The notes under the pieces were generated by a model that saw only the letters and a program-made list of their open reading frames with translations, ran no database searches and was not told the DNA's origin. Shown one piece after another: positions 654 to 59,463 of a DNA stretch of 64,000 nucleotides. The stretch comes from Phoronis australis (lineage: Eukaryota > Animalia > Phoronida): assembly GCA_002633005.1 (NCBI GenBank), contig NMRA01000049.1, positions 590,881 to 654,880 of the forward strand, given 5' to 3'. Each line of letters opens with the position of its first letter. Position 1 is the stretch's first letter. Made by a program: the position numbers and the translations under genes.

Positions 654-829
654 TTTGGAGATCTGTGACCCGAATAACAAGTTCTATGCGGGCAACATGC
701 AGATGTGTCCTCAATGTGACGAACGTTGCGGTTACTGGAAACTGAAAACCAGTTGTCTCTATTCGCGTTTCACGTATATTTTTGACAACTACGCCACCTG
801 CGGTTTCGCCATCTTCATGTCACTTTGGG
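654..829 (+). CDS. Anoctamin gene 1 exon (LEICDP...MSLW), 176 nt
   Basis: cag acceptor at 651-653, gtaag donor at 830; Cys-rich TM1-TM2 loop. Confidence 0.92.
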
Positions 830-3800
830 GTAAGTTGGCGGTCGTTATCACAGCAAGATTTCACCATACGCGAACAGTAGTTAACCTTGTCATGACTTTG
901 GTAGGGTTGGTAACCTGTTACATCTTTTTGCACACAGTTGGTAGTTACAGGAATTTTGTTTGAGTTGTGTAATTTTGTTGGAATTGTGGTGAAAGACCTG
1001 AAGGAAATCCGAATATATTTAAGTTTAAATTGTCTGAATAGCAGTATCCGAAGTGTTTTGGACAAGTAGATACTTGTCAATTTTTTTTAACTCTAATGCA
1101 TTTTTAATTTTCATGAAATTTCTTTCAATAGTCGCTCTCATTCAGTTTCGTGTCTTGCGTTAAAAATTAAACTTCCACATGCATGCTTATCATCGGTTCA
1201 GTTAGGTGTGAAAATAATGAAATTTCTGTCATTTAATTAGTTTCAGACTGTGTTGTAATCATTAACTAACTTTAATTAATTTAAAATCATTGAATTCCGA
1301 CGTAAGTAAAAACTTTGTCAAGTGATCTCCTATCACGTCCTAGTGGGTGGTAATGTAGTCAGCAGAGAGTAGTTGACTAGAACTGCCTAGTATCAGTCTA
1401 AATGCATTCATCTGATTGGTTTTGAGTTTTTCATTTTCATCCTCATTGTCATAATCTGCCAATGGCAAGATTTGTTTCATCTCTAGATTACGCTCCCGAA
1501 AGGTTCTCCCTCACATTCACAGTGATGCACAATTCACCTGGGTTGTAGTTTTATCGAGTCGGTGACATAACAACATCATATATATTAAATAGTTATAAAG
1601 AAGATCTAAACAATAAATCTGTGAGTTGTTATACTTGTCAGAGTCACTTAAATTGCTTCCATTGTTTAGACTCGCAAAGTGTGACTAGTTTACTCGTAAC
1701 ACGTGCTTCAATCGTTTCCACGTTTACGGGTTTTTTTTGTTGTTTCAGCCACTTTCTTCATAGAATTCTGGAAGCGTCGTCAGGCGGAGTTCCAGTACGA
1801 CTGGGATGTTGCTGACTACGAAGAGGAGGAGGTAAAGAAATTTCCTGTAGATTGCACTTTGTCTCGCCATTATGTCAACAGTAAAGTGAATGGTTGTAGT
1901 GATGATAATTACTGTTTTTTCCAAATCGTAAATGGTTGTAGTAATTCTAGGGAGTTACTTTCCTGGCATATGTGACTGTGGAAGTTTTGCATAAAACACA
2001 TTGGCATAACTGTAGTCTAAATGCCGTGTACTTCCAAATGTTGTTGTGCAGAGATAGTTTGGTTGTTCGGAAAACGTGAAACATGAAGTGGTGGTTTGTT
2101 CACAAAGTGCCACAATTTCTTTTGAGGGTAGAATGTTATTTTGTTCGGAAACGCAGTAAAAGTGAGGATTTCTCAGCTGGTCTCAAATTACATTTCTTAT
2201 TATTTAGTTGACAGAGTTCGGACTTAGCAGCACAAGCCAAGTTGCAAAAAGCCTCTGTTATTGTTACTTTTTGTGGGCTTTGAAATGAGAAGTAGCAAAG
2301 TGTTGACATGAATTATTTTAAAGATTGTTTTGAAGTAGTGAGAAGCTTTTTATTCTACGATTTGGCTTCACGTTCGGAGCAAAAATTGCCAGGTTCTGTT
2401 GTTAGCTCATGCATTTTAAAGACCTCTTTTACCAAGCTCGTTCTCAGAATGTCCGAGCTCATTAGACTATTAGTTGATGAAACGAGATAAGACCTAGTGG
2501 AAAAAATGCCGCAAGTGCAGCACTCTCTGCAGGGTTCTTACTCGGTTTTTGTCATATTTTCTTATTGGGACCTACCTTGGTGACAGGCCCTTAATGTCTG
2601 GTACAGTGCATGGCCAGCAAGATCACTTTTGTGACGACTTTGTTTCAGCAAAACATTCGTCCGGAGTTCGAGGCGGCCGTACGGCACAAGAAAAAGAACC
2701 CTGTAACTCAGGAGTATGAGCCGTTCCTGCCACTTTTCTCAAAGATACCTCGCTGGGCCTCTTCATTCGTCGTCATTCTATTCATGGTAAGAAGTGATAA
2801 ATGAATCTAGGAACGGTGGAATGCTTTATTGAGGGATGTGCACCTGGTCATAGCTGGGATTGTTGTAAGGTTGTAATAGGAAATCCAGTGCTGTGATGTT
2901 TTTTTTTGATTACAAAACATTGCAAACATGAATTCGATCACAGTTGATATTCAGGCTAAAGTACCATCTTCGAATTGTGTGGTAGTAAAAATAGAAGATG
3001 CAACAATTGCATTGCAACAGGCTTTGATAAATTTGGTCTCCTGGTGGTAAGGCTACAACAGGTACCCCAAATTACTTGGGACTGGGGTTCCTCTGCTGAT
3101 AAGTGACGATTCGCGTCTTGTTTTAGTCTGAAAAATCCAACTAAATAGGGTAAATAATAATGAGATGGTGACTGGCACGAAAATCTTTTCTATCAAATCA
3201 ATGATATGTTTATTAATTCTTGCATCTAGTACCAACTACGGTACCTGGGACAGCGATGAGCACAGCAGATCGATAATGACCTTTTGACCTGCTTTTATGT
3301 GCCACAGCGTCTACAATAACTCGCTGAATTAACAAACTGACTCAAAAATAGAAAGTAGCCCAACTCATTTTGACACCTTAAAAGCAACTGCGTGTGTGGC
3401 CAGACTTATGTACCATCNNNNNNNNNNNNNNNNNNNNNNNNNNNNNNNNNNNNNNNNNNNNNNNNNNNNNNNNNNNNNNNNNNNNNNNNNNNNNNNNNNN
3501 NNNNNNNNNNNNNNNNNNNNNNNNNNNNNNNNNNNNNNNNNNNNNNNNNNNNNNNNNNNNNNNNNNNNNNNNNNNNNNNNNNNNNNNNNNNNNNNNNNNN
3601 NNNNNNNNNNNNNNNNNNNNNNNNNNNNNNNNNNNNNNNNNNNNNNNNNNNNNNNNNNNNNNNNNNNNNNNNNNNNNNNNNNNNNNNNNNNNNNNNNNNN
3701 NNNNNNNNNNNNNNNNNNNNNNNNNNNNNNNNNNNNNNNNNNNNNNNNNNNNNNNNNNNNNNNNNNNNNNNNNNNNNNNNNNNNNNNNNNNNNNNNNNNN

Positions 3801-6800
3801 NNNNNNNNNNNNNNNNNNNNNNNNNNNNNNNNNNNNCAAGATTTGTTTCATCCTCATTGTCATAATCTGCCAATGGCAAGATTTGTTTCATCCTCATTGT
3901 CATAATCTGCCAATGGCAAGATTTGTTTCATCCTCATTGTCATAATCTGCCAATGACAAGATTTGTTTCATCCTCATTGTCATAATCTGCCAATGGCAAG
4001 ATTTGTTTCATCCTCATTGTCATAATCTGCCAATGACAAGATTTGTTTCATCCTCATTGTCATAATCTGCCAATGGCAAGATTTGTTTCATTTCCAGATT
4101 ACACTCCCGATAGGTTCTCCTTCACATTCACAGTGATGCACAATTCAGCTGGGTTGTAGTTTTATTGAGTCGGTGACATAGCAACATCATATATATTAAA
4201 TAATTATAAAGAAGATCTAAACAATAAATCTGTGAGTTGTTATACTTGTCAGAGTCACTAAAATTGCTTCCATTGTTTAGACTCGCAAATTGTGACTAGT
4301 TTGCACGTAATACGTGCTTCAATTATTTCCACATTTACAGGTTATTTTTGTTGTTTCAGCCACTTTCTTCATAGAATTCTGGAAGCGTCGTCAGGCGGAG
4401 TTCCAGTACGACTGGGATGTTGCTGATTACGAAGAGGAGGAGGTAAAGAAATTGCCATTATGTCAACAGTAGAGTGAATGGTTGTAGTGATAATAATTAC
4501 TGTTTTTACTAAAAAGTAAATGGTTGTAGTAATTCCAGGGAGATACTTTCTTGGCATATGTGACGGTGGAAGTTTTGCATAAAACACATTGGCATAACTG
4601 TTGTCCAAATACCATGTACTTCCAAATGTTGTTGTGCAGAGACAGTTTGGTTGTTCAGAAAACGTGAAACATGAAGCGGTGGATTGTTCACAAAGTGCCA
4701 CAATTTCTTTTGAGTGTAGAATGTTATTTTGTTCGGAAACGCAGTAATAGTGAGGATTTCTCAGCTGGTCTCAAATTACATTTCTTATTATTTAGTTGAC
4801 AGAGTTCGGACTTAGCAGCACAAGCCAAGTTGCAAAAAGCCTCTGTTTTTGTTACTTTTTTGTGGGCTTTGAAATGAGAAGTAGCAAAGTGTTGACATGA
4901 ATTATTTTAAAGATTGTTTTGAAGTGGTGAGAAGCTTTTTATTCTACGATTTGGCTTCAAGTTCGGAGCAAAAATTGCCAGGTTCTGTTGTTAGCTCATG
5001 CATTTTAAAGACCTCTCTTACCAAGCTCATTCTCAGAATGTCCAAGCTCATTAAACTATTAGTTGAGGAAACGAGATAAGACCTAGTGGAAAAAATGCCG
5101 TAAGTGCAGCACTGTCTGCAGGGTCCTTACACGGTTTTTGTCATATTTTCTTATTGGGACCTACCATGGTGACAGGCCCTTAATGTCTAGTACAGTGCAT
5201 GGCCAGCATGATCACTTTTGCGACGACTTCGTTTCAGCAAAACATTCGTCCGGAGTTCGAGGCGGCCGTACGGCACAAGAAAAAGAACCCTGTAACTCAG
5301 GAGTATGAGCCGTTCCTGCCACTTTTCTCAAAGATACCTCGCTGGACCTCTTCATTCGTCGTCATTCTATTCATGGTAAGAAGCGATAAATGAATCTAGG
5401 CAACGGTGGAATGCTTTATTGAGGGATGTGCACCTGGTCATAGCTGGGATTGTTGTAAGGTTGTAATAGGAAATCCAGTGCTGTGATGTTTTTTTTGATT
5501 ACAAAACATTGCAAACATGAATTCGATCATAGTTGATATTCACGCTTAAGTACCATCTTCGAATTGTGTGGTAGTAAAAATAGAAGATGCAACAATTGCG
5601 TTGCAACAGGCTTTGATAAATTTGGTCTCCTGGTGGTAAGGCTGCAACAGGTACCCCAAATTACTTGGGACTGGGGTTCCTCTGCTGTTAAGTGACGATT
5701 CGCGTCTTGTTTTAGTCTGAAAAATCCAACTAAATAGGGTAAATAATAATGAGATGGTGACTGGCACGAAAATCTTTTCTATCAAATCAATGATATGTTT
5801 ATTAATTCTTGCATCTAGTAACAACTACGGTACCTGGGACAGCGATGAGCACAGCAGATCGATAATGACCTTTTGACCTGCTTTTATGTGCCACAGCGTC
5901 TACAATAACTCGCTGAATTAACAAACTGACTCAAAAATAGAAAGTAGCCCAACTCATTTTGACACCTTAAAAGCAACTGCGTGTGTGGCCAGACTTATGT
6001 ACCATCCAACAAAGACCAAAATGGACAAGACGACGAGTCAGTACAATAATGTACACATTCAGTTAGCTAAGTATAAAATATTCACCAGGAGGCACATTGG
6101 CTATGGTCAAACATTTGAGCAGAAACACTTCATTGATGTAAGTATTACAACGCCAGAACAACAAATGACTCCTGGTCCTAGCTAATCATTACTTGCCCCT
6201 CTGGCTAAGAAGTGCCTGGGCATGCCTGCTACTTTAATTGCTAGTGAACAGGTGGTTTCTAGAGGTGGTGTTACGGCCCAGAGAACAGTCATGTTATGAA
6301 CAAGTAAGCCGGCTAGTGTTTTTGAAAACCAACATGTATGGCACGTCATTGTATACTTACAACTCATTTTCAAAGAAATAACAAAAAAGTTTGGTTCCAA
6401 TAATGTTTCCACCATGAAATTAGAATGGAAAGTGTCATGAATAATTTCAAATTTTGTTTTGAGTAATAGATGAGACCCCGGACGCTGATTTCACCAGTCT
6501 GTAGCATGTTTTTTCACTTTGTTTTCTCAGTTACTCTCATTATAGAATCCACCTTGTTCTTTCCCATTTCAGATCGTGTTGGTGTTGGCAGCCATATTTG
6601 GCGTGATCCTCTATCGTATCGTCGTCGTGGTATTGCTCTATTCGACCAAAGTCGAAGTCGTCATGAAAACAGCAGGCATCGTCAAGTCTATCACGGCAGC
6701 CATAATATCCCTTGTGATCATTACTATACTGAACAAGGTAAGACATTGGATCATTGCTATACTGAACAAGGTAAAACAATGGACCATTGTCAAGACTATC

Positions 6801-9800
6801 ATGGCAGCCATAATATCCCTTGTGATCATTACTATACTGAACGAGGTAAGACATTGGATCATTGTATGCGGTGTTCAGTGGTATCAAGTTCAATCTGTGT
6901 TATTTACATTTTAATTGGCAATATTGACATATGCTTCAGTAGCGCCATGAGATGTCACTTTTTTTCTGCTGACATCACATTTGCCATCAGCAAGAGATGG
7001 CTTGCGTATCGATTACCGTTGGTCTTGAAATATTGATGATCTCCTGAAAAAAATAGTGTTGTTGTATATTATATGAATGCATGGGTCCGTCCATAAATCT
7101 ATTGCTGAATTTACTTTTTATTTGTTAAGTTTGATTCAGTAAATGAATCGAAGAGATTTGAGAATTGATGTTCCCAAATCCCCACCTTGAAGTGGTTTTT
7201 TGAAGTCAAATTTGATTTTCCATTATGCACTGAGCTTGCAGAACCAAATCAAATTTCTGTATAATTTTGATTTTTTCAGGTATACGAAAAAGTGGCCTAC
7301 TACCTTACAAACTGGGGTGAGTGATACGGCTACGTGCTCTGTGTGGCAACCTGTCTGCCATGCAACCTGTCTGCCATGCAACCTGTCTGCCATGCAACCT
7401 GTCTGCCATGGAGCCTGGCTGCCATGGAGCCTGGCTGCCATGCAACCTGGCTGCCATGGAGCCTGGCTGCCATGGAGCCTGGCTGCCATGCAACCTGTCT
7501 GCCATGCAACCTGTCTGCCATGCAACCTGTCTGCCATGCAACCTGTCTGCCATGCAACCTGTCTGCCATGGAGCCTGGCTGCGTTACTATCCTTTATGTC
7601 TTTTCAAACTTGGTATATTTGAAAACAGCACAGTGTGAAAAGTCCCATGTTAAGGGTGTTTGACACAGCTTTGATTTATCGTTCATTTTTAATTGTGCTT
7701 TGTTTCTTGGTCTTTGCATACTACAAATCTCTCCACTGCAGCCACCTAAACACAGGCACCTCTGGCAAAAATAATATTCACATGGACACCTGAAAAGCCA
7801 CTTTTTATTGAATCAAGTACTGAAGTCTTTTGGAAATGGGATAATTTCCAATGTCAGTTTTATGTTGTGATGGCTTCTGTATTTTCCGGTTTCTTTAAGG
7901 TTTTATTTTGATGCGCTACGTGTTTGCTATGAAATCAGAATAAAAATTAGAGGGTCACGGACAAGCTTAAACTGTGGGACTTAAGAAAGCCTGCCAATTT
8001 ATTTCAAGGTGACAATTACTCCGTTGCATTTCACTAGATGGCGATTATGCTAACTTATCGAGTTTGTTCGAATTAACTAAAACATAAACTGTCTTCTGTA
8101 ATAAATTCAAATTTGCCATCTTGCTACAAATATAGTCTGAAACGAGATTCTAAGTTTCAAGAGCACGAAACCATGAAAATAACGTTGGAAGCACGGTTGC
8201 AGATTTTAAATTTATTGGAACTTGGCATGAAATAGCAACATGCGTACCCTTTTGCCTGGCAGTTTTACATCCATTAATTATCAGAAGTAATATACACTGG
8301 TATTTTTAGCGCTCAAAATGGTGGAGTAGTAAATGTTTTTTAATGGAACGTAGAGTCATTTGTATGCATGAGAGTCCGATTGTTTGCACTCTTTGAATTC
8401 TTAAAATATTATTTATTGGTGTAGTAATACTAGCATACAGTAGTTTCTTAAGGGGAGACAACTCTACAATTGGATACTAAAACACAGTGACTGATAATAC
8501 TGAGCTGTGATCAGAAGAAAATGAAACTTTATTTCTCACTGCAGAAAGTCATAGAACCGAAACTGAATGGGAGGACAGCTTCACGTTTAAGATGTTCTTG
8601 TTCCAAGCTGTCAACTACTACGGCACCATATTCTACATTGCTTTCTTCAAAGGAAGGTAGGAATGTTTAATTTGTACTTCGGCCATCTTGATTTAACGAA
8701 CGAATGGTTTTGATAATTGAGCTGGCTTTTAAGATAGTCTGGCACAGTTGAACTTTGTCTTGGCATCACAACGCGGTTTTTATTATTCTTGAAATGTGTA
8801 GTATGTTATTATAATAGATTTTGTTCAGTAAAAAATCCAGTTGAAGTATTCTAAAATCTTCATTCTCATGTTGACCTCTATAAGTCGGTATAGATCAAAA
8901 TTTTCAACACAGCTTATGTAGCATCAGATTTACCAGAATTTCATAGTTTAAGTCACGATGCGTCTGCATATCAGTCGTGTTCCTCACCAGATGTCTCAGC
9001 ATTCAGTGACCTGTAGAAGACATCTGGTTTTTACCGTAGTGTCAAACGAAATGTATCAACAGGTTCAACGGGACACCGTATGACAGAGCCTACTTTCTTG
9101 GTTACCGGATGGATGAGGTATTATTATATCGTTGCAAAAATCGCTGGGATTAATGATTTCTGCAGGAGTAGGGATTGTAATCATATTATTGTAACGTCTG
9201 CTTAACCTCGCGCTGTGGCTATGACGAGGTTGTGGTATTAGTTATGGAAGCAGACATCTTTAGGCTTGGATTAGGTCAGCTGTTTATATTTTATTGTCGC
9301 TTGGCTTGTTTTTTCGTATTTGCCAGCTTACTGTGAAGGAGGTGGTGACTGAATCCAATGAAATCTAAATATGCCAAGCTCGCCGAAATTACTCTATTCT
9401 TACATTTAACATTGCGTTGCCTGCTCTGTGATGAAACGTTGTCGCTATAGAGGTGAATCGTCATTTTCTTGTCAATTACTGGGTTCCGTGTGTTGTGTGT
9501 CGTCTCTAATGGGAGAGTCGAATGAAGCCTCTGTGTAGGGTAATGTCGCTGTTGAGGTGAACATTAATGTCATTATGTTTCAGGTCATGGGTTAATGGTC
9601 ATCCGAGTAGCAGGAATTACATAGGAGGCCACTATTACCCGGAATCGGTGACATTTTTTTCGTTCATGTTTCTAGGTTTGCATGGTGCGATGACGTCATA
9701 GCTTGTTGCTGGGAAAATATCTGGAGATGTTCTATGACTTTGAGTCTTAATTTGGTTTTTGCAATTCCCAAAGCACTGTAGACAAAGCTGCACCAGTGTC

Positions 9801-12800
9801 TTTCCGATTTTCTGTTTGGAATTTCCATCATGAATTAAGTAAGGCAGGTTAGGCTAAGCCGCAGTGGGTCTCGTACTTTTCAGTTCATTTCCAGTCTTCT
9901 CCCTTGGTACTTAAAGTTCGCGTCATGCGAAGTGCATAAAACTTTGTTTTTGCTAATCGCTGTAAAGATATTGACAAGTTTATCTTTTGTTTTGGAAACT
10001 TGTCCTGTTATTCACTATATTAATTCTGTTTTTGAGTTTAGGAATTGTCAGTTGTTTGAAAGGAAACGTTAGTGATCACAGAAAAATGAAAGGTTGTTTG
10101 CTGAATCACATCTTTACTGCATTTACCTATATCACCCAAGATCCAACGATGGACTGAACCGAAATTATTAATCCATACCCGCGGATCCAGGTATTTTTGG
10201 GTACCCTCTATTTTTTTTGCCCTAAAGAAATGCAATGTACACATCGAATTATCCCAGCAACTTTGCTATGGTGTCTCGAAAACTTGAATTCCCCTTCATA
10301 CTTCCTCCCATCATTTCGCCGATTGCTTTCAGGTTGTTTCAATCCATGCTTGTCGCAGTGGCTGTCCCAACAACGCTTGATCCTGCAGAGTTGTTTGGCC
10401 AACTTTTTCAGTTCTAGGAAAGTAGCTTGCATCGACTGTTTGGATAGTACGCGTCCGATTATTGGAGCCACGTAATCTTGTCTTGGGCCACAAAAGCTTA
10501 GTTGAACAAATATGAACTGGGAGTAGTGTTAAACTGAAATGCACTAATTTACATCGCTCATTGGAAGTTTTAACCTTTCCATCATCTTAGACTTTGTGCA
10601 CCAAGTACTAAAACATTGGGCTCGTGTCTTCACCAAGATGAATTGACTAAGTCATAAACATTATTCGACAGGCTGTGATTAGTTGTTCGATCGAAACACG
10701 TGTTTCTGTGTTGTACATACATTTAGTTATGCTCATGTTGGCGTCAGGATTCCTTTCTGATTTTAGATGTAAATACATCTACTTAAGCGACAAAACACAC
10801 GATTGTGGCATTCTACTTGAAAATATATACGTGACCCCAGGATTTAATCTTTGACCCAAAATTTAACCAATCATCTCGCATTATTTGATTACAGATTTGT
10901 AAGCCTACATGCAATTGATTGATTTCAAGTCAAATGTGGAGTACCGGGATTTGACCCCGCAGCCCAGATGAGCTCACCTTATTGGAACTTGAGACAGATT
11001 TCGTGTGGCCCATTAACTGACTAGTACCTTTTAGCGGATGATTCTGTATGATGGTTAAATCTCACCAATTTCAGGCTGAAATAATCGCCAAAATGTCCTT
11101 CCACCCACAAATTTTCAAAACTTTGCTTAACAGCGTAGGTATTGAACAAAACTTGTACATGGTAAAGCACTTAATTTGGTGCCGTATATCTTTCGTGGAA
11201 AAACAATGAAATGAAATTTCACTTGTCGGCCATATTGTGTCCTAAATTGGCGAGATTTCACTGTATTTGTCACGTTTTCAGGTTCGCTGACAGACAGTAG
11301 AAGTGGCTGCAAACGTAACGCTTAGTAGTTATTGTCCGGGGACCAGTTTGGTCGATTTCATCTACAGCGCTGTTGTTGTCTTGTAAGTGCACTGTGGGAC
11401 GGTTGTCGACTATCCAGTGACATCATGGATAACTTGGTGACCTGTGGATATTAATTTAATGGAAAACAACGTTTGTCTCTTAAGCATATGAGGGGTCCAC
11501 TGTAACGTGCTTCTTGGTGCAAGTATGACTAAGCAACGCTCATCATTGTAAGTGAGCCAAAATACATTGCGTAAATTCACACAATAGCAAATCTTTTGCA
11601 CAAAACGTTCTTGATCCCATGAAGTTAAGTGTTGCGGCCTAAAATGGATATTACAAATCATATCGCACATCCTCATGTTATTTGTGATGTCACCGGATTT
11701 TTCCTTGCCATCAGCCATCCCACAGTGCAATTGGAAGACAACAGCAGCATCATGGATGAAATTCTCCGAACTAATTTAGAGTTGTTATTGTTATCCAATT
11801 TTGTAATTGTGTTGTGGTATGTATTTTATTGACTTGGTACAATTAGTTGAGCTTGTCTACTAACTGTAAAAGTTATGTGTTGCATTTTTTTCTGTCACTC
11901 ACTTAGATTCAGCGGTCGTCCTGGAAACTACGACTACTCCGTGGCCAACTATCGCCTGGATGAGGTGCCTTTTTCTAAAGCAACAACATAAATAACAAAG
12001 TCCTAACATGTCGTCTTCCAAATTGCACCATGCGCCTATGAATTCGGCTTGTTGATCTTTACTCTGGAAATTACTGTCTTTCTAGTTTTTCTGCATCAAT
12101 AAGGTGTTTGGAGTTCTTTGACCAGTTGCATGAAACAGTCCCAAATAGGGACTCAAGTTCCCTAAATGTACTGCGTATTTATGTTCTTCACTCACAGATG
12201 TAATATTTTTTCTATCATTCTATTTTTATTACGAGCTCCTCCTTGACTATACTGAGCCCTTAATTAAGTCATAATAATTAGGGACTTAGTCCTTAAAATA
12301 GGAATGTTGCATGAAAAGATCGCCACTCATTTTCAGTGATATTGATAATTCTACATAGAGTTCACTCTCGATTTTATATCAAAGTCAAAAATTGACTTAA
12401 TAATGAGACTCAAACAAGAAAGGACTATCAGTGTTTTCACAAGCCCACAAATACGCAGTAGATTTAGGAAGCTTAGCCGAGTCCCAATTTGGGACTGTTT
12501 CATCCATTGGAGCAAAGGTGATGTTAGTTTTGGAACTGTACTTGTTTGGATTAATGCCTTCTGAAGGGAACTCAAGAATCGGGGAGTAGGCATTACCCTT
12601 AGTATGGGCACTTAAAACTAATTGTAGAAATAAGGGATGGGCGTTTACCGAACGGTCGATTTGGTTAAACATCAAGGGAATTGTATTAAAGTGGGATTAC
12701 ACATAGTGGGAGTCGAATAAAACTGGTATGTGAGTACAGGAATTTTACCACCCGGGTATGGTAAGGTGCTGATGAAACTGTGTTTGTTACTCATGGGTAT

Positions 12801-15800
12801 GTGAGTCGTAGTTTTGTACCTTTTGGGAGATGAAATTCACACGAGGCAGGGATTGACAAAGACATGGGCATTTTGAAGAAAGTTTCGTTCGTTTGAATTG
12901 GGAGATGACGTTGAAAAATGAAAATTTTGAAATTTCCAGCACAGGTGTTGAGTCGAACTTGGGTTTTAACCTGAATGAGTATGGTAAAAACCTGGGAACT
13001 ATAAAACCTGGGAACTATTTTTGTCAAAAGTTTGTTCTGTATTTGTGAAATCATTCTCTAATGAAAAGGTCATAAAGTATTCAAACACCTGTTGACGCAG
13101 TCATTGAAACCAAAACCACGATTTCTGGAGCTGGAGATCTCTTGTTTCGGCAGTAATGCAGGCTTGTGTGACTGGCAGTCATGGCAAAGTTCATCAGCTC
13201 TTATCATAGCAAAGGTCATCAGCTCATGTCATAGCGCATGAATTCAGTGATCCTCTGGACAGCTTTGGTACACTCATTAGATGGCAGCACTGTGTATCAC
13301 CATGGTGTAATTTTGGAGCTGTGCTTTAACATTGCCTGCACAATAATTCGAAGTTTTATGCGATCATGCAGCCTTTTTGCACCCTGAGTTTGTAACCATT
13401 GGGTGGCGTTCTTATCCTTGGTTTATGATCAGTGGCTGCTCAGAAGGACTGGTTTTGACCATCGTTTTATACTCCTCAGTCATCAAAATAATTGTATAGA
13501 TGAGTTTATATATATATATATATATATAGGAGTTTCTAAAAACGGTTTGTTCCAGTAATGCTGAAACATTTATGAGAAAATGGTCCGAGATTAGCTTGAA
13601 ATTTTTGTTGCAAAACTTTACTGATTTTTCAGCCAAATGGTATCGGTCAATTGTGTTAAACCACTGGGTTTCTGAGCAGCCGTTTTTCAGAGTTTCCGAG
13701 TAGTTTGTGTTGTTTATACTCCGGCTTGTGTGTCTTTGTTGAAGTATTTGCCTAACATTTTAATTCCTTTTTGAAATCATTGTTTTTCAGTGCATGCCGC
13801 GCCTCTGTTAAATGTTAGCTTGCCTAATATTAAGATTCTGGCTTAAATATAATTTTTTTGCACCTGTGTTGTCACTAGGACTATTGTTGGACGGCCTGGA
13901 CAGTACAACCGTATCTTAGGCTTCCGCACTGAAGAGGTTTGAGTGCATTCGGATATGATGTAGTGCCTTATTTGTCTGTCTGTCTGTCTCTGGAGGCCTT
14001 TGCGTATTAAGAAATTCTCAAAACAAGTATTTGCGGTAATGGGTAGAAAAATCTTTTTATGAAATGTACATTAATTGATCAGAATTTAGTTACTAAAACT
14101 CAACTTAAGACTTTCCAATTTTTTCAAAAAATGGTCAAAGTTTCGTGGATTTACATGCCGCGTTTACTGCAGACGTCTCCTTTTCTCAACTTCAGTACTG
14201 TTTAGTTCGAATAGGTTACTAGGCAATATCTGTTTTGTAGTAGGTTTCATCTTTACAAGTATGGAAACTGTCCTCCTGTAGATGTCACTGTTACTAACAC
14301 TCTTGCTACAGTCAGTATCCTGAGCAAGTGGCGCACTCTGTTGTTTATAGCTTTGCTCCACAACCAGTGGTGGCCAAACTGCTTACAGCATAGAGATTTT
14401 CTAAAACATTACCCCACTACAGAGGCACAACATTTGCCCTTTTGCAGTACCCTGTGTTTCCAAGTAAATGACAGAATTTCATGGTATGTTGGTCCGGTTA
14501 AGCCTGCAGCATACTGACCAATCTTTGACAGTGACAAAGATAATCACAAAGTGTGCTGCAGGCTTTATGGTGGACTATAAGGCATCCTAAGATTGAAGAC
14601 AGTGAGTAGAAATATGTACAAAAATTTTGAACTACGCAAAATCAAATTGGCCAAATAACTTTAAGCGAATTCATGACATAGAACATAACTTGTGCGTGTG
14701 AAAGTGTTCATTCTTGAATTCGATGAGATTCTGTTACCATTGAGATAACGCGTCTCTGCAGCTAGCTGTTGGTCATTGGCTATAACTGATAGACATCGTG
14801 TTGGCAGAGTGCGCTTTCACATTACTCATTCCTAGCGGTGAATTTGGTTTTCAGTTTCTGACATTCTACAGTCGTGCAAGCCCCTGTTCTTTGTTCTTTG
14901 CCTGCATGTGCGTACAGGACTTTGGAGACCATTAACAATCTTAAGCTTCCGTAACATTTCCTCTTCGTTCTAAATTTCTTCAGGATTCAAGGTAGACCCG
15001 GTGACTATGCACGTATTGCTGGCTTTAGACAGGAAGAGGTTTGCATGTTTTAGATAATTCCTTAGAGGGTGGCACAGATATACTGACGGCACTAAAAAAA
15101 TAGAATGATTTAAGTTCTGGGTGACAATGTCGTGCCGTTCTTCGCACCGTCTAAACCAGAGAAAACGTACCTAAACTAAACTAACTATAGGCCCCAGAAG
15201 TAGTCGGACAAAATGACATTCACAGATACGCCCTGGTGGATGGGGCAAGCACAAATTCTCTGTCAAATTAACTGTCTTTCTTGACCAGGAACTAAGGTTG
15301 ACCTCTCTGAAAAATGGGAGCATCGTGGGATTGCTGATATTCTTGACAGGCTGACTGTTTCATGAAAGTGAATTGAGACATGTCGTTGGCCATGGTGTTG
15401 CCAGATGACATGTAACTACAGGATAAAGTTATAATTTTTCCTTATCATTCTTTTGTTGAAATTACAGGGGGGGGGGTTCTTTTTGTAAAACTGATATCGA
15501 CTTCTGTCACTGGAGTTCCATGACATGATTTGTAATTCTCTCTGAAAATTTGTCTCTTGTGCCACCCCCTGAGATCACCTTTCTCTTCTAAAGTAGTTCT
15601 AACAATATTATTGTACATAAATTTATCGAATTAAACAAAACCAAAGATTTTTTGTACTAACCAATGATCATAAGATCAGTTGTTTAACTCACGAACAAAG
15701 CCTATTAATTCTGAATGACTGAGTCTGGATTTGAATTGGCATATTCACTGTTTTTACACTAACTGCATGCTTTTATATTAAGTTTCGCTCTGTCCTTATT

Positions 15801-18800
15801 TTAAGTTTTGCTTTGTCCTTGTTTAAGTTTCTTTGGAATGCCAGTGCGTGTTTTGTGTCATTCTAACAAATCTATTGCTCTTTTTAAGTAAGGTGAATCG
15901 GTTAATTGGTTGAAATCACTTGTAATTAAAACGCATTTATGATGAAAAAACAATCCTGAAATTAATGTAAAATGCATAGCTTAGAGGCCTTTATGCTGAG
16001 TTTTGAGTAGTAAGTTCACATCCATCAAATCAAATTACCTGCAAATCCTGTGAAGATATTCATTTTCAGTTGAATTTTTGTCCGATAACACTGAACTGTG
16101 TCTGTCAGCTCCTCCTTGTTACAAATACTATGAAAACAATCACGCAACTGTTAGTATGTCTTTCATATTGATGTTGTAGGGGGTTTTGCACCTGGCTTGA
16201 AGTAGTTTTCAAAATAAACTAGGCATACCTCTGCCACACAGCCAAACATGGACAAACTTCTTGCCAGAATTTATTACCAATTTAGTTGATTGTTTGTCTC
16301 AATAGCATGAGCATTTTTGTGGAATTATAAGATATTACGGTAGAGTGCGATGATAATGTTTATATGTAGATGGACCTGTAGGGTAACTTGTTCTGATTTC
16401 AAAAAAGTGGGTGGAGCAACACCTGTCAATATTTAACCTGAAGTAAAGCTTCTAGCTGAAAAGAAATAGATAGTTAGTACTGCTGTGGTTTTGTTCATCA
16501 AAAGTTTTTTCATTGCCATGCACATTTTATTTTGAAAACTGCTTTCAGGATATAACTGAAGTACGGTAAAAACCTTTTTACTTCGAACAAAAACATTATT
16601 TTTGCTAAAGTTGCAGTTTTTACATTTTAAGAGGTCTTCTACTATATCGCAAATACTCGATTTTTTTCCAAATGTTGTTTGGTGATATATGCAGTACAGA
16701 CGGTGAATGCTAAAGGCAAAGTAAAATTTCCTGAAAATTATTTTTGTAGAGAATTCTGAAAAAAATAAATGTCAGTTGTCTACCATATTGTTTCCCAAAC
16801 TGATTTTTTTACCTGAATTCTGCATATTGGCCTTTTTGCTGCCTTCTTCGTTATTACTGTTTCTGATCTCAAGTTTGTATTTTAGTGTGACCCGGCCGGT
16901 TGTCTGATTGACTTATGCATTCAGCTTGGAATAGTCATGCTTGGTAAACAGTGTATTAACAACTTCAAGGAATTATTTATACCGTAAGTTTGCCATTGTT
17001 ACAGTACACGCCAAAAGTATCCAGACAAAATGAACCGTAAGTTAACCTCGGTTGGATGGACAGAAGCCAAATTCATGGTCAGAGTAATATTTCCTCATGA
17101 CTGAGAGTGAAGGGGTCCAAAATGGAATGTTGGGAAGGTGGCTGACCCGTACTATTAAGAATTTTGTCGTAATTAGCTGTCATGCTGGGGAAAACTATTT
17201 TGTCTGATTACTTTTGCCTTGTACTGTATGTCTGTCTTTATTTTAAGAAACTAAATGGAGATTAATTGGAAGTTTAAATGTATATATAATTACCCGTATT
17301 GCTCAAGTCAAGAAGTATACGTACTATGTCTGACACAGAAAATATCAGTTTAAAGCCTTCGTGGGATAGTTTTTTGTTATCCTTGATTTATTGGATTTCG
17401 CAGGTGGTCATAGTGCTTCAGCAGCGCAAGACGAGATTATTCAAACACTCCGAATAGGTGTAGTAGACTTTCCATCGCAGTGAGAAAACAGGTAGCAAAG
17501 AACGTCTGCCTGCAGTATTTACTTGCAGTGGGTTCCAATGTATATTGAATAGAACGCCAATGTGGACGGTTGCTCGAAGCACGTGCAGCTGTTTGAATGA
17601 ACTGGGAACTTTGGTAGTAATGAAGACGAAAGGCGCAATAAGCCTTACCTTTCATTACATTTGACAATTGATGACTTCGTTGTCATCAGAATGGTTCTTG
17701 TATCATATTTTAGGAACTTAATTCACTTGTGTTAGTTTTTAGTAATGGAGGGTCTCTTAAACAATGGTGTGACACTGTTTAAAAACAATGGTATGGCACT
17801 GGTTGGTTTTTGGAAGGAAATCTTCTACTCTGCAAAGGCTTTAACAGTTGATGTTTTGTAGAGACTGTGCGTAATGTTTCTGTCATTTGGCAAATAATGC
17901 CATTAGGAAGGTTGGGTAGAAATTATTGCAGGTGCACAAACATCAAGCTTTCCACTCATCTACCATTCCATTGTTGCAAGGTTTCCTCGTTGACCTATTA
18001 AAGTAGTCGTCTTACATTGTAATCTTTTGTGGGAGTTTGCAAGATGCCCTGTTGACCATGGTTAAGTGGTTTCTACTTTCTCAATAGGTGGATATTGAAG
18101 TGCTTGCGCACACGCAAGTCTAAGAAGACCGAGAAAGAGAATGTGTACACTCGGTGGGAACAAGATTTTGATCTGTCGCTACAACCGAACAATGGATTAT
18201 TTGAGGAGTACTTGGAGATGGGTAAGTGGCAACATTAACCAATAGAAGGCCGAGGGACCATTCTTAATTGACCTATCGCAAGCTCCGCCCCCTTGCGAAA
18301 AGTCTACAAATAAACAATAAGTTCTACCCAACAACGCATTGTTTGCTGGGTAGAATGGCAGCTTGGAAACGATGGTTTGTCAAGAATGCTGCGTTCTGAT
18401 TGGTCAGTTAAACCGTCACTTATCACTGTTGTCATGTGTGTACAAACTGTATGCTTTCAGTGACCCTGTGCCTCCCCCCAAACGGTATGTCTATGCTTTT
18501 GTATGTGTGAGTGTGCTCAAAATTAAATGCCAATTTTGGTTTCTACAGTGATGTGGTATAAAAATAAAATATTTTTTGAACAGTTTTTGGTATTGTTTTC
18601 GGTGGGTTGGATCTCAGAAACATTTGTGCTATTTGGTATTTCGTAATGTTTTTATGATCTTAAAAAGTAACTAAAAACATTGACGTCTGTCATTTTTATG
18701 ACGTCAAAAGCGTATGCAAGCAGCAAGCCCCGACCCCGCCCCTCTAAAGCGTACCATTTGTACAATCTTGAAAGCATCGATAATTGCACGTTCTCACTTA

Positions 18801-21800
18801 ACACATGCATGGAAAAGTTCAGCTCCAGAGATATCTGCCAGCAATTATGCAAGAATATACTATCTAGTTTAACGGTTGATTTATTCAAGTTGGCAACAAA
18901 AGGGTGACCTCTTGGATACACTACTAGGCATCCTCCAAGCTGAGCACTAATCCTCTTCTTTATCAATCATCTATTGAATTTGAATAGCTGTTCTCCCTAG
19001 ACTCTCCTTTGTGGTGCATGAGAAAGGCTGATCACTGCATTTGCATACCGTCCAAGTGCAGTGACTGATATCGGCGCAAAACCTGGTGTACGTTTAGTAG
19101 ACGCATGAATTTCGCGGAAACAAAGATCACGCAAGAGCTTGCAAAATTACTCAAGCGAAAAGTTAGTGTTTCTCAATTTTGCTGAGGATGTTGCAAACTG
19201 GTGGCCACTGAAATGGTGAGGTTGTGATGTTGAGTTCATCATTTCAGTTGCGTAAACGAAGATGTCTAGCTCTGTAATGCTTCGCACTTGTGTCCAGTCT
19301 GCGTAGCACACTCTTGGCTATTGGCAGTATTGGCCAGTAGGAGATGGACGCTAAGCCTATGCCTTACAGTCTCAGCCTTGTAGGAAACTTCCTCATTACT
19401 CACAGTGTTTGCCTGGGCAGTATCAGCCAATTGGAGACTGACACAAATTCTATATGTGAGGGTAGTTTTAACCAATAGAACACTTCCACATAATATCAGT
19501 GTTGATCCAGGCTGTCTTGACAAATGGGGGGCAGCCTTAATCTCCAATTCATGTGTTATCACATAATAAGAGATTGGAAAAATAACATTTACTATATGAA
19601 ACAAATAGGGCCTGCTATAGCAAATCAGATCTTCGACATGTGTGGGTAATTAAAAGCTTTGTAGATTTAGACTTGAGTGTTACTGCACAGCACAGACTGC
19701 TGTGCAGACCGCCCCCTTTAGTCTGTTGTTAACTTCCTGTTCTGGTTTAATCAACTGTTTGCTTGCAGTCATTCAATTTGGCTTCGTCACCATTTTCGTC
19801 GCCGCCTTTCCATTGGCTCCATTGTGCGCCTTGATTAACAACTTCATTGAAATCCGATTGGACGCCTACAAGTTTGTGTGCGTGTGGCGACGACCAATGG
19901 CGGCGAGAGCTCAGGACATTGGTAAGTTCAGTTTCGCACAGAATATGCATGTATTAGTAATAAATATAGGGTGTCTTAAAAATTCGGTTCCCGCGGATTG
20001 GGCCTACTGTATGTTTACACCTTGCTATGAAAGTAGGCGTGAGTTGATACATGCTCTGTTTACACAGTAATGGCCAACAAACAACTCGGAAAATTGATCG
20101 CGCAATTCAGCTGTAAACTCAGATACGTCAAAATACATTTATTATGGTTTAAGGAATTGGTTCCTTTTTGATCACCTATTGATGAAATTAAACCAGTAAT
20201 CTTGTTCCTAAGTTAATACGCAATGCAGTTATTATCATTTGAAGTGTGGGTACTTTTTTCAAGACACCCTGTGTATCGTATTAATGTGGAAACTTTTGCT
20301 GGATATCTGAAGCTTACTGAGTCCTCTTCATTCCTACAGTGTCTTACACACTCGTCTGGGTTAACCTTCGTGTTCAACTTACACGCCCGCCCCAAATTTT
20401 AACTTTGTTGGAGTCGTGCTCAGCATGATTCCCTTCTCCTAATTTTTGAGTTTCCCAAGTCGAACACCCTGGGCATTAGTCTGGATGAGACAGGTAGTAC
20501 GTTGCGCGTCAGTGGTTGTTCACACTGCTCCATCACCTGGGACAGCCAATAACAAGGCACCGACTATGTATTGTTCTGCATGCTATGTCTTCCAAAATGG
20601 CAGGGTGGTCTAATTAGTCATTCATAAGTCACCATCTACACTCAACAATCTTTAAGATGTTGCACAGTCATTTGCTATCTAGTAACGGCGATTCTGCATG
20701 AATTTTTGAGACTCCATCTACAGGCAACTCCATGTTTGAACTTAATATTCTTAAACCGGACGATCGCCGCTCAAATAAAAAAGTTCATTTAGGACAACAA
20801 GTGCCAACATACAGCTCAGGTAACATCCATAGAGTGAAGTGAAAGATACATAGAATACTCTATGGATGTTACCTGAGCTGTATGTTGGCACTTGTTGTTT
20901 TAAATTGTTGTAAATATGATCCCGATGATGTCTATTGAAAAGACGAAACATTGAATTGAACATAAACTTTTTTACTTGTGCGGCGATCGTCCGGTTTTTG
21001 ATCTTATTGTGGCCAAAAACTGATTTAATTTATATTGTTAGTGACTGAAATATTGTGTACGCATCTTCACTGCCTATTTTCAGGTGTCTGGTTCTACATT
21101 ATAAAGACCATTGCTAGAATTGCTACTCTGACGAATGTAAGTTTTCATCCTCTTCATTTTGGAATTAGGGATTCAACAAAAATGTGTTCATTATGGTGCT
21201 GTCTCTGTCCCCCGATTATCTGTGTGCAACTACTGTCAGTCAGTTGTAAGGACTGGGGCCATTTAAAGGCAAGAAGTTCACGCTGAAAATGAGCCATCGT
21301 TGAACTGTAGTTCATCACAGTTTCATAAAGGGGACATGGGAAACTGGAAGGTTCAGCCAAAATATGGCATAGCAGTAACTTCTGGTTTTTTAAGGCGACA
21401 TTGATAAAAGTTCCATAGCTTTGGAAATCGCTGCAATTCGTAGCAGATGTAAATGATTCTTCTGTTGTTAGAAGTCATTCCTTACGCTGCCTATTTCCGA
21501 GATTTTGCCTTGCAAAATGGTCGCTGCTTTCTGAATGAGTAGCTGATTGTCAAATATTTGACCTTGAATTGACCTTGAGACTGTCTGTTGCAGGGGTTTA
21601 TTCTGGCTTTCACCTCGGACTTTGTACCCAAGCTGGTCTATAAGTACTTCTACAGTGACAATGAAACGACCGAGGGCTATGTAGCCTGGTCCTTGTCCTC
21701 CTTCAATACATCAGACTTTGAAGCTCGCAGCGTGCCGCAGGGTGTATGGAATGTCACAGAATGCAAGTACGTTCTTTGTTTTCAAAGTCCTGGATGTGTG

Positions 21801-46856: not shown

Positions 46857-46961
46857 ATGTCTCAAGATGGGGAGACGACATTTATCAAAGTGCACGCGCC
46901 CTGGAATGTGCTCACGCGTTATGCTGAAAATCTGAAGCTGAAAATGCCCATTAAATACGAG
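46857..46961 (+). CDS. Anoctamin gene 2 exon ([35 protein letters not shown]), 105 nt
   Basis: tttacag acceptor, gtatct donor; anoctamin dimerisation-domain motif. Confidence 0.88.
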
Positions 46962-49900
46962 GTATCTGTAATTATAACGAAATGTTAATGATAGACTAAA
47001 ATCTTAAAATTATTTGGACAGTGCCTAGATGGATTGTTTGAACGACGTCAGTGCTGTAGTGGGGCGTAGGCACAAGGCGCAGCCAACCACCTTTTGGGAT
47101 TTGAACGTAGCGCCTACGCACCGTAAGTTACGTTCTGCAGTGCTCAAGGCGATACGGTGAGCTTTGGGCGCCTACTTACCTCTAATTTTACCACTACAGC
47201 ACTGGATGCGAGTCATTATCGCCCATTTGTAGAATGCTTTAGTGGCTAACCGTCACGTTGGCTTTAGTAGAAGTGTGTATCTCCACATGTATTCATATGT
47301 GACACGTTGAAATCGTTTTATTTATCTCATGCGCGTTGAATCTGTCGAGGGAAATACGATCATGTAATTAAGTTTTCCGTATTCACCTCCCGCACTACAT
47401 GTACTTCAACAGCGACCCCTGACATTGAAAATTCAAAAGATAGGTCAATGTCGACTCGACGTCTTCAGCAGGTTCGATCATCAAACTTTCCGAATATAGT
47501 TTAAAGTAATACAGTTGCAGCAGTGTAACTAACACTCGACATGCAACCAGGCCCTAAACGTAAAATCTGGAACAAAACTGTTAATTATGACACCTTTGTC
47601 TCAGTTTTCAATTGCTGAATACTATATCGTCTGCAACTCAGGCGCCGACTCCTAGGGAAATAAGATATCAAACATTGTTGTTTTTTAACTATTTCCAGGA
47701 GATGTTACAAGTTCACTGCATTGTTGCCGTTGTTTTTATCTTTGCTATCTCTTTTCAAGAAATAAATCGTTACTTTTAAAACTGTTTCTTTTACAAAAGA
47801 AAACTTGCAACCTAACGCGCAAGTATATACATATAGAATGTGATTCGCCATATGAACAGTCTTTGTGAAGTATTTGAAAAATCTGCCGACAAAATTTAAG
47901 AAACTTGGGGATTCGAAGCGCATGGGATAAATACAAAACGTACCTCGATTGGCGTACATGAAGTAATATCCCACTCGACCTTATTCCGCGGAATAATGTC
48001 TCGTGGTATATTACTTCATGTACGCCACCCTTGGTACGTCTTGTGTGTTTATTGCAGACTACAAAACATACACTGCATATACACTATGTACAAACCCTGA
48101 AATCGTAGAGCATTATATCCGGTCCAAGTTAAACAATTTTTTAATATTTAACCTGTGTGCGGCCTTTAAATGAGGCCGGTCATGTCACATGTGTGATTTA
48201 CTTAACGGAAGCATCCAGGCATCAGATATTGACCTTACCTAGATTCTATAACTCTGACTTTAGTGAACACGCGTTCTCCAAGTACACGGTTTTCTCCGCT
48301 AGTATGTTGAACATCTAATTAGCTAAGGTAAACAAACTAATTTGCCTGCTAGGCCATAGTCTGTTCAGCTTTAGGAGGTCTAGAAAATCACTTCCGTGGC
48401 TAATTGTGGGAGGCAAAATAATCTTGGTGATTTCAGTATCATTGAGTGATATACTTTAAGAATGTAAAAACTTCTCAAGGCTTGGGTTGCACGTTTTCGT
48501 GAATTTTGACCTAAAATTTGACAGAAATGCTTGATGCATAGGCCAAACCCAAAACCATCACATCTGTGTCTGGGCGTTTGAAGATAACTGAGGAGTGACT
48601 GCCTACAGCGTAATGAGCGTGCACTAATAAATGTGTGTCCGCCTCTTCATGATGAAATGTGAGTTTCGGAACACTCTGCACATTTATCTCTCCACTATCG
48701 CTTACAGTATGTCATGACACAGATTTCTGTGGGTGGCATATATATATATATACCTTTGTACCCAAGTGCTTTAGCATTGACACTTGCCCATTGCTTATAG
48801 AAACAATCAACAGGGACCAGGGACGGATCCAGGATTTTGATTTGGGGGGACAGGGCAGAGTATTAGCCGAGATGTTGCCCGTCAGACATTCCCACCCCTG
48901 AATTGCCAAATGGAATCCGGGAGAATATTAGTGGGGAGGGCATGGCCCCTTTGGCCCCCTTGGCCCCCCTCTAAATCCGCCACCGAAGATCTCCTTGTTT
49001 TTGCCACAAAACAAAACCTTGAACTGCATTAGAATTTGTTTAATCAGGCTAGGTAAATTTATTTTGTCAAATGTCTTAGCAAAAGCAAACCTTAAAAATG
49101 AGTATCCCTACGACCACTGTACAATTGTCATCAAACAACTCGTGTTAAACTTGAGAGCATCTTTAACACTGTAGTTCAACTAAAAGAATGTCATTTTGGA
49201 AATAACTTTTGTGTGAAAATTAAAAACCTTTACCGTACCACAGGAGCTTGTTCCGACGCGGTTTTAGAGGGTGAGTAAATGAAAGAATAATTTTTCCAGT
49301 CTACTCTAGAAATTCTCCAGTTTGGGACAGTCTCCAAAATTTGGGACACCAAAATCTGAGCTAAAATTGAATTTTCTGGATTGTGAAATTTGGAACACGG
49401 ACGATTCTTGCGTATTTGACATGTCTCAAATTTCAAATGTTTCATTTTTTATAACTTAGTCTGAAAATAGACTTGGAAGTTCATAAAAAGCATTACTGAT
49501 CACCTACACGTTAGTAAAAACTACCGCCAGTGTCTTTGAGTTTGGGAAGGCCAAATGAGTGCAGATTTCTAAAATTAGGGATAAGCTCGAACCGCAAGCA
49601 AAAAAATAAATTTTTCTATGTCCCGAAAAACGGTTTTAAGCGTTGTTCTTATTTTTTAACTAGGGTACTTATCAGGTACTGTTTAAAAGTTGGAAAAGCT
49701 TTTATTTTCCCTTTTGTTTGTGTGCCTGTCTGAAAGTTGTAACCCATATCGTTTTCTGGCAAATGATGCATTCTGGAGGCAGCACGTGTCTCGTTCTCTG
49801 AGCACTGTTAAACGGAACTGACAACTTCCTTGGCTTTCTACTACAAGTACAAAAAGTCGTAATTATGCCCTTTCCATCAAATTCAATATTGTCACAATTT

Positions 49901-58900: not shown

Positions 58901-59463
58901 CAGAATGGGGTGATTTGAAGCCCTGGACTTATCTGTGCTTTAAAATGACGTTGAACGGCTTCCAGGATATAGTTTGCATTATTGTTTCAATCTGCTCAGA
59001 TATTGATACAGGAGCTAAGCACGTTTTCAAATCGTTGGATCGTGTTCTTCGTTTGGAAGTTTATGGGTAACTTCATACCACTAACTTGAGAGGTTTTCTT
59101 TCACATTTCCGAAGCAACAAAAACCTAACTCAGCTTTAAACAAGAATCGAAGAGATCCAAATCCAATCTTAAGCACTCAGAACATTCTTTTTACATGACC
59201 ATAAATCTGACAAGACGTGAATCACATTTGTTGCGATGTGTAAACATTGCAGTGCTTTGGTCGTCTCCTTTACATACCACCACCTCAATCCATTCCAGGT
59301 GGTTATCGTGATCGGAACCATTATGGGAGTGATTGTCTATCGGGCGATTATCTCAATGCTATTGAACTCGAGCAAGGAAAACGAAGTCGTTCGCATGGCA
59401 GGACTCATTAACTCTGTCACAGCAGGCATTTTATCCCTCCTGGCCATCAGTATCTTGAACGTG
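46857..59463 (+). CDS. Anoctamin/TMEM16 family gene 2 (tandem paralog; N-terminal domain to TM4; 3' part not seen)
   Basis: Phase-consistent exons: [107 protein letters not shown]. Confidence 0.93.
51281..51342 (+). CDS. Anoctamin gene 2 exon ([20 protein letters not shown]), 62 nt
   Basis: ctag acceptor, gtaagt donor; phase 0-2 bridges the neighbouring exons; F.A.F.R motif. Confidence 0.7.
53852..53952 (+). CDS. Anoctamin gene 2 exon ([33 protein letters not shown]), 101 nt
   Basis: tttttacag acceptor, gtaatg donor. Confidence 0.88.
54664..54687 (+). CDS. Anoctamin gene 2 candidate microexon (GLEDDGKI), 24 nt
   Basis: Long pyrimidine tract + cag, gtaatt donor, phase 1-1. Confidence 0.6.
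55122..55225 (+). CDS. Anoctamin gene 2 exon ([22 protein letters not shown]...NERY), 104 nt
   Basis: taag acceptor, gtaagt donor. Confidence 0.9.
55687..55751 (+). CDS. Anoctamin gene 2 exon ([22 protein letters not shown]), 65 nt
   Basis: ttccag acceptor, gtgagc donor. Confidence 0.88.
56468..56602 (+). CDS. Anoctamin gene 2 exon ([18 protein letters not shown]...FDESV), TM1, 135 nt
   Basis: tttcag acceptor, gtaggt donor. Confidence 0.9.
57082..57257 (+). CDS. Anoctamin gene 2 exon (NSVCQP...MCPSCDVSC...MSLW), 176 nt
   Basis: tttcag acceptor, gtgagt donor; same length as 654-829. Confidence 0.92.
58111..58193 (+). CDS. Anoctamin gene 2 exon ([28 protein letters not shown]), 83 nt
   Basis: tttcag acceptor, gtcagt donor. 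Confidence 0.92.
58235..58445. repeat. Imperfect (GCC)/(ACG)/(ACC) trinucleotide microsatellite in an intron of gene 2
   Basis: Direct observation. Confidence 0.9.
58740..58877 (+). CDS. Anoctamin gene 2 exon ([15 protein letters not shown]...TVFLL), 138 nt
   Basis: ctaag acceptor, gtaagt donor. Confidence 0.92.
59299..59463 (+). CDS. Anoctamin gene 2 exon ([15 protein letters not shown]...SILNV), 165 nt
   Basis: ttccag acceptor, gtgaga donor. Confidence 0.9.

Follow-up and report, generated by a model that had tools for sequence, protein, structure and literature searches.

A cluster of five duplicated exons, probably spliced one at a time, for the extracellular TM5–TM6 loop of an anoctamin of Phoronis australis

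The locus

The stretch analysed here, called the window, consists of 64,000 nucleotides of Phoronis australis DNA (GenBank assembly GCA_002633005.1, contig NMRA01000049.1, positions 590,881 to 654,880 of the forward strand), and all coordinates below are counted within it. It contains part of an anoctamin (TMEM16) gene in which five short paralogous exons, named c1 to c5 in their order, lie between the exons for transmembrane segments 5 and 6 (TM5 and TM6). It is likely that these are duplicated, mutually exclusive exons that swap the extracellular TM5–TM6 loop and so tune the outer vestibule of the protein, with weak splice donors and the decay of wrong products enforcing the exclusivity; that the cluster itself is real can be regarded as nearly certain. 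It is expressed and selected, four of its five exons are confirmed, and similar sets exist in two or more further lineages of worms.

A first-pass annotation, made from the letters alone, had proposed the five cassette exons and their two flanking exons, all of which were found in place with AG/GT ends and the predicted peptides (Table 1). Its further statement that the cassette exons are all 3n+1 nt long and free of stops also held, the five sharing one open frame. When all AG..GT candidates of 40–85 nt that were 3n+1 long and stop-free were compared (1273 on the plus strand and 1155 on the minus strand), c1–c5 and their own truncated variants occupied ranks 1–7 by mutual similarity, with scores of 10.5–35 for the cassette exons versus 3.6 for the best candidate unrelated to them. 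A rescan of the window with 111 homologous loops and the newly found genomic exons yielded no sixth cassette exon; c2, the weakest of the five, scored 31 in this rescan, and the top of 767 reverse-strand candidates reached 22.7. The exons are adjacent and alike in length, frame, phase and sequence, which are the exon criteria used by Hatje et al. 2017 (PMC5740500). In c3 a second in-frame AG lies at 11913, 6 nt inside the exon, so that an exon two residues shorter would be possible; the reads use 11907. The cassette introns also harbour elements with long terminal inverted repeats that resemble miniature inverted-repeat transposable elements (11345–11772, 12116–12517 and 16200–16544), one of which draws many reads from other loci.

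Table 1. Exons of the cassette and of its host anoctamin gene (positions in the window; reads are junction reads to the upstream and downstream exon, summed over three runs)
Feature	Position	Strand	Remarks
Upstream exon, constitutive, TM5	8545..8656	+	ends in phase 2; AG/GT ends; junction reads
c1, cassette exon, 55 nt	9063..9117	+	Arg at −4 and Asp at −2, with a sequon for N-glycosylation; X1 contig, 25 upstream plus 16 downstream reads
c2, cassette exon, 64 nt, most divergent	9584..9647	+	Tyr at −4 and Ser at −1; 6 reads on each side
c3, cassette exon, 58 nt	11907..11964	+	Arg at −4 and Asp at −2; 12 upstream plus 8 downstream reads
c4, cassette exon, 58 nt, intact	13879..13936	+	no joint among those listed; pS 0.88 vs pN 0.31 against c5
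c5, cassette exon, 55 nt, family-consensus type	14984..15038	+	28 upstream and 25 downstream reads
Downstream exon, constitutive, TM6	16886..16983	+	first residue Cys, equivalent to mouse TMEM16A C625 and TMEM16F C596
Host anoctamin gene, part in window	654..24466	+	5′ part outside the window; 13 constitutive exons
Host exons before the cassette	654–829, 1749–1831, 2649–2786, 6573–6737, 7280–7316	+	open frame
Host exons after the TM6 exon	18088–18221, 19769–19921, 21084–21136, 21594–21766, 22588–22687, 24290–24466 (stop)	+	open frame

Assignment to the TM5–TM6 loop

The two flanking exons match positions 193–227 and 246–277 of the Pfam Anoctamin family, and they align with residues 571–604 and 625–650 of mouse TMEM16A and with residues 542–575 and 596–626 of TMEM16F. 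As the upstream exon reaches G604 of TMEM16A (G575 of TMEM16F), the gap that remains, G604/C625, G575/C596 or Pfam 227/246, has room for exactly one cassette exon; it spans 20 residues in both TMEM16A and TMEM16F, and one cassette exon together with the junction codon supplies 19–22. Single cassette exons are too short for a match in the PDB, and the loop was mapped from the flanks and via a segment of an Owenia protein. The equivalence to the TM5–TM6 segment of TMEM16A, as originally proposed, thus agrees with both the flank alignments and the length of the gap.

Counted back from C625, the last four cassette residues correspond to TMEM16A 621–624, a mapping that rests on the numbering and on the TMEM16F alignment. 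Functions have been reported for residues at these positions: R621 belongs to a set of four basic residues affecting the anion selectivity of TMEM16A and its sensitivity to NTTP and 1PBC (PMC4751199), E623 mediates activation by extracellular protons (PMC8835819), and R621, E623 and E624 influence the potency of inhibitors (PMC10245117). Among 111 distinct loops, the position four residues from the end (−4) is Arg in 103, and the −2 position is acidic in 109. In c2 the conserved Arg is replaced and the final acid is lost, and because the R621 equivalent is absent, we infer that c2 would provide the most altered vestibule.

Splicing of the cassette exons

The splicing evidence came from a contig set presumed to be RNA (X1) and from three raw RNA-seq runs of 2026, all of one study and taken by species label (X2–X4). 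Between 18 and 19% of each run was read, reads were mapped at 95% likeness, and a joint was listed when at least three reads with two starts supported it in one run. The resulting table has eight rows, all of them GT..AG and all joining a flank to a cassette exon, with 71 upstream and 55 downstream reads over the three runs. In X2, X3 and X4 the upstream exon was joined to c1 by 4, 4 and 17 reads, to c2 by 1, 1 and 4, to c3 by 4, 4 and 4, and to c5 by 17, 6 and 5; joints to the downstream exon were found in 2, 0 and 14 reads for c1, 1, 0 and 5 for c2, 3, 3 and 2 for c3, and 5, 13 and 7 for c5. One X1 contig, which comes from a second study, runs from the upstream exon through c1 to the downstream exon. 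With mapping at 90% likeness, where repeats crowded the result, only the joints of c1 and c5 were among those listed. Joints that skip the cassette or connect one cassette exon to another were absent at the listing threshold from the portions of the three runs that were read.

Junction reads that bridge the other exons, which Hatje et al. 2017 ask of a mutually exclusive exon, were therefore obtained on both sides for c1, c2, c3 and c5. The first-pass annotation had expected junctions from 8656 through each single exon to 16886, up to five isoforms, and use biased by tissue; it is borne out for four exons, each joined singly to both flanks, and not for c4, whose splicing was not seen, and the bias between samples is discussed below. 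The two outcomes that it had named as contrary to exclusive splicing, namely a single exon in use or routine tandem inclusion, were not encountered, since four exons are spliced and no tandem joints are listed. The libraries also contain stranded sense intronic reads, i.e., pre-mRNA, across the whole cassette interval; in X4 these rise just before c5 (14500–15000) and before the downstream exon (16500–16900), with five molecules ending at 14896, which could reflect slow splicing or intron retention.

Selection on the exons

Pairwise comparison of c1–c5 gave a synonymous divergence (pS) of 0.52–1.11, at or near saturation, and a non-synonymous divergence (pN) of 0.31–0.61, in keeping with the earlier proposal that these are old duplicates under selection; the exons of two other animal loci introduced below point the same way. 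All four exonic single-nucleotide polymorphisms (SNPs) that were checked among the rows listed are synonymous, one of them in c4. This exon shares 13 of 18 residues with c5, its best family score is 62 compared with 31 for the 99th percentile of shuffled sequences, and its frame and splice sites are kept. Because of the saturated pS and low pN against c5 and of the synonymous SNP, c4 looks maintained under selection, and we infer that it is used in a tissue or stage outside those sampled.

How exclusivity may be kept

All 32 possible exon combinations were translated: the five single-exon forms remain open, and all 27 others run into a premature stop, 692 nt or more ahead of the last junction. 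The frame rule put forward at first, that one exon restores the frame and that zero, two, three or five shift it, stands in its first part; its list left out the four-exon forms, which are in frame by length yet closed by stops. The cassette donors have 1–2 of 4 matches to the U1 consensus at positions +3 to +6, versus 2–4 for the 12 constitutive donors (p=0.001). The same is seen in other animals, where all eight cassette donors of the loci L005, L006 and L017 (see below) score 0–2 and eight of nine single-exon loci score 3–4.

Weak donors of the cassette exons would thus compete for the flanking exons, and the frame-shifted transcripts with no or several cassette exons would be removed by nonsense-mediated decay acting as a filter. 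The weak donors and the stops in all forms other than the single-exon ones favour such a competition with decay of wrong products, and it is fairly probable that the two together enforce exclusivity. Decay of wrong products is a recognised route for many exon clusters (PMC5740500), and the corresponding criterion of Hatje et al. 2017, that exon–exon joints be lacking or only frame-shifting, agrees with what was found here, as no such joints are listed and all would stop early. Two other routes were set aside: steric exclusion, which calls for a short distance between 5′ and 3′ splice sites, in view of cassette introns of 406–2259 nt, and U12-type splicing, as no cassette donor has the consensus. 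TGCATG motifs are about as frequent near c2, c4 and c5 as elsewhere in the gene (0.85/kb vs 0.67/kb).

Loop exons in other animals

Among the named proteins of 16 species groups, two loop types at one gene were found in two, Lineus longissimus and Owenia fusiformis. In Lineus the long loop is present in 14 of the 15 isoforms listed of a 22-member cluster and the short one in XP_064628634.1, which differs from XP_064628633.1 in the TM5–TM6 loop only. In Owenia CAH1799994.1 has a loop swapped relative to three other proteins, and relative to one of these, CAH1799995.1, its N-terminus differs as well. The 13 mollusc groups of the same set have one loop type each, and one group (Mercenaria) remained unparsed. 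A full loop swap within a gene was absent from 13 further groups (tunicate, amphioxus, cephalopods, oysters, limpet, turtles, salmonids, beetle and flatworm), of which one was unparsed and for all of which annotation may miss rare exons.

A scan of metagenome contigs covered 80 of 213 confirmed loci; eight had no anchor motif, and many were redundant or too short. In twelve loci the interval was complete and the loop had an exon of its own: ten have a single one, and in each of the other two, L005 and L006, three exons follow one another in identical order (64, 55 and 55 nt). A further locus, L017, has two loop exons in an incomplete interval, and all three match annelid proteins or a Capitella-like protein best. 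Between L005 and L006 each of the three exons has a pN of 0.07–0.10 and a pS of 0.51–0.83, indicating purifying selection, and their introns contain nothing alignable beyond the splice signals. Exon c3 scores 56 and 62 against the middle exon of L005 and L006 (versus 50 and 60); c4 and c5 score best with the last exon, at 67 and 54 and at 54 and 53, respectively. The exon order may thus be taken as suggestive of a common ancestry of these cassettes and that of the window. Repeated duplication would be an alternative, since the match of c2 to the long first exon is poor (scores of 13 and 10). The proposed check on relatives, for conserved order and a ratio of non-synonymous to synonymous substitution rates (dN/dS) below 1, thus came out in favour for the purifying selection and similar order of L005 and L006, and weak for c2.

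Exon c1 is nearest to the loop of an anoctamin-4-like protein of Styela clava (12 of 18 residues identical, score 66, next 43), and its G-S/T-P motif recurs in four of the 111 loops, those of Styela and of three cephalopod-like sequences. In a number of loci (L020–L022, L024, L026, L028–L031 and others) the TM5 exon also includes the loop, and the lack of an intron between the two would prevent exon duplication of this type; elsewhere the loop forms a separate phase-2/phase-0 exon. Annelid-like paralogs with a single 61-nt exon of the long type and weak donors were also seen (L001 1713–1773, L018 2559–2619, L023 5380–5440 and L048 1319–1379), their loops resembling proteins of Paralvinella and Dimorphilus. 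A far-reaching and rather improbable scenario would be an ancient multi-exon cassette predating the split of the annelid, nemertean and host lineages, perhaps bilaterian, that provided tissue-switched vestibule states (c2 losing anion steering, c1 glycosylated), with the single loops of molluscs, cephalopods and tunicates as survivors of differential exon loss.

Alternative readings

That the exon repeats are an assembly artefact of uncollapsed haplotypes is a thought suggested by the presence of a likely artefact of that kind elsewhere in the window (1435–6006), but its probability is negligible: the cassette exons share only 4–13 identical residues, their synonymous sites are saturated, they give no self-match in blastn among matches of at least 40 nt, and the joining of c1, c2, c3 and c5 to identical flanks in RNA refutes it. 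It is also quite unlikely that only four exons are live, c4 being a silent, recently abandoned duplicate and the isoform diversity largely neutral redundancy. The single-loop genes that suffice in every mollusc group scored would fit this, as would the lack of a c4 joint; against it, c4 has kept frame, splice sites and family consensus while its synonymous sites became saturated relative to c5, and the three exons of L005/L006 are all under purifying selection. A loop cassette that is real but has its role in extracellular interactions, glycosylation or trafficking, and not in permeation, is a possibility to be held tentatively. It would explain why the loop varies mostly in its first two thirds, remote from the R621/E623 end, why all but one of the five exons retain the terminal motif, and why an N-glycosylation sequon occurs in c1 only; c2, without the Arg common to 103 of 111 loops and without the last acid, speaks against it, as do the effects of R621 and E623/E624 on inhibitor potency in TMEM16A (PMC10245117). 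A swap that tunes the function of the outer vestibule, so that the isoforms differ, is a reasonable and fairly probable reading, strongest for c2. Several results nevertheless weigh against parts of the overall interpretation. The known key residues are mostly constant, as every exon but c2 has Arg at −4 and the residue at −2 is acidic throughout, and the host protein may be either a channel or a scramblase. No c4 joint reached the listing threshold in the three runs or the contig set, and rare skip or tandem products are possible because of the three-read threshold and the share of the runs that was read. Exon use may differ by sample, as the share of upstream read starts that falls to c1 and c2 is 25%, 38% and 70% in the three runs; a 3×4 permutation test of exon use by sample is no more than suggestive, with p=0.13 for the upstream joints and 0.012 for the downstream ones, and a two-group test that gave lower p values was made post hoc. 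The low scores of c2 make orthology across phyla weak. Finally, the junction data fit decay and a true one-of-five choice alike.

Such a choice before decay is achieved in Dscam1 by RNA pairing between a docking site and selectors. A competing pairing of this type, in which the selectors next to the individual exons would vie for a single docking site, is rather doubtful for the cluster described here. The absence of listed tandem joints despite plentiful pre-mRNA in the libraries would suit it, and a 20-nt stretch at 8761–8780 pairs at −15 to −17 kcal/mol upstream of c2–c5 (p=0.023, uncorrected, against intron tiles); however, pairing of the same strength with it is reached by 21% of 84 random tiles taken from introns, the summed-energy test gives p=0.13, the partner sites lie in differing registers, no 10–12-mer is shared by at least four cassette flanks, and no intronic block is conserved between L005 and L006. 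The stretch was not accepted as a docking site on account of the summed test, the random tiles and the missing shared selector motif, the null applying to designs with an upstream dock. Inverted repeats in the cassette interval, also considered as pairing elements, look like transposon ends or chance. Competition between weak donors with decay of wrong products stays the preferred account of exclusivity.

Host gene and neighbourhood

With any one cassette exon, the 13 constitutive exons from 654 to 24466 form an open frame of 550–553 amino acids. Three of 11 fragments exceed the cut-off for Pfam Anoctamin (PF04547), a fourth reaches an E-value of 1e-5, and matches in the PDB are to ANO1, ANO6 and ANO10; exon 654–829 alone, searched as 655–828, found no protein match. 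The TM5 exon has Gln at the position of mouse TMEM16F Q559, a pore position where TMEM16A has K588 (PMC6690719), so that the Lys marking TMEM16A/B chloride channels is lacking. In a tree built with the loop removed, the host gene falls among 21 lophotrochozoan rows named anoctamin-4-like (support 92/97), next to molluscs with weak support (82/91). The tree comprises 39 rows, with the loop left in two, and as vertebrate ANO1, 2 and 7 and a true root are not part of it, any subfamily placement would be provisional. A Capitella relative, 153854, has been placed in TMEM16A/B (bioRxiv 10.1101/2022.04.22.489151).

A 2-kb block of the gene is doubled at 95% identity (1435–3417 and 4046–6006) on either side of an N gap (3418–3836). 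It carries exons 1749–1831 and 2649–2786, with copies near 4360–4442 and 5238–5375 that differ in one residue, and is probably an uncollapsed haplotype, a true duplicated exon pair being the alternative. Shortly after exon 6573–6737, the intron contains an 80-nt copy, 95% identical, of the end of this exon together with its donor (6677–6864). A second anoctamin gene follows in tandem on the plus strand about 22 kb downstream (46860–59466), its TM5–TM6 region lying beyond the window. Tandem anoctamin pairs are present in Capitella (bioRxiv 10.1101/2022.04.22.489151), and neighbouring accessions in bivalves hint at such pairs there too.

Comparison with known systems

The loop isoforms of Lineus and Owenia are already known in the form of automatic annotation. 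A description of a duplicated TM5–TM6 loop cassette in TMEM16 was not among the matches listed in full-text searches, subscription journals lying outside their scope; 10 supplement files of PMC5740500 contain no entries for ANO1, 4, 5 or 6, and one supplement file of PMC8373072 none for ANO1, 2, 4, 6 or 7, both sets possibly being incomplete. The splice event is mostly hidden in present annotations. The role of the outer vestibule in anion selectivity, proton gating, drug binding and the choice between channel and scramblase has been studied mostly with point mutants, and the natural variants of the loop, four or five on a single backbone, along with the sets of the other worms, offer a testable panel over R621, E623 and E624.

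Among its relatives, the host protein groups with the lophotrochozoan proteins that databases name anoctamin-4-like and is 57–59% identical to most of them; the mollusc members have one loop type, and the annotated isoforms of Lineus and Owenia have two. Splice variants of TMEM16A, B and F (segments a–d, exon 0, exon 4/14 and V1–V4; PMC8835819) are likewise isoforms of one gene of the same family, but those described in the excerpted text are alternative ends or included and skipped cytoplasmic segments, with no duplicated set of TM5–TM6 exons. With the Dscam1 clusters (PMC5740500) the cassette shares tandem paralogous exons and one exon per transcript, and to this extent its first description as Dscam-like is apt; it is far smaller, docking/selector pairing is unsupported, and frame incompatibility alone can remove errors.

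Closer parallels are found in other ion channels. The exons 15a/15b and 31a/31b of NALCN are mutually exclusive duplicates (Senatore et al. 2013, PMC3557258; PMC4436565), and the pair 15a/15b resembles the cassette in being duplicated exclusive exons of a lophotrochozoan ion-channel gene that change residues at the permeation pathway; NALCN has two exons that swap a residue of the selectivity filter, whereas here there are five that swap a whole loop in a protein of another fold. In protostome Cav3 channels, the alternative extracellular loop encoded by exons 12a/12b alters ion selectivity with the filter unchanged (PMC4436565), and this loop beside the pore may be the closest functional model for the cassette, although Cav3 has two exons that differ in cysteine pattern and the cassette has up to five cysteine-free ones, known from sequence and RNA. 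The tuning of pores by duplicated exons, as in NALCN and Cav3, would thereby be extended to a different fold and a larger cluster.

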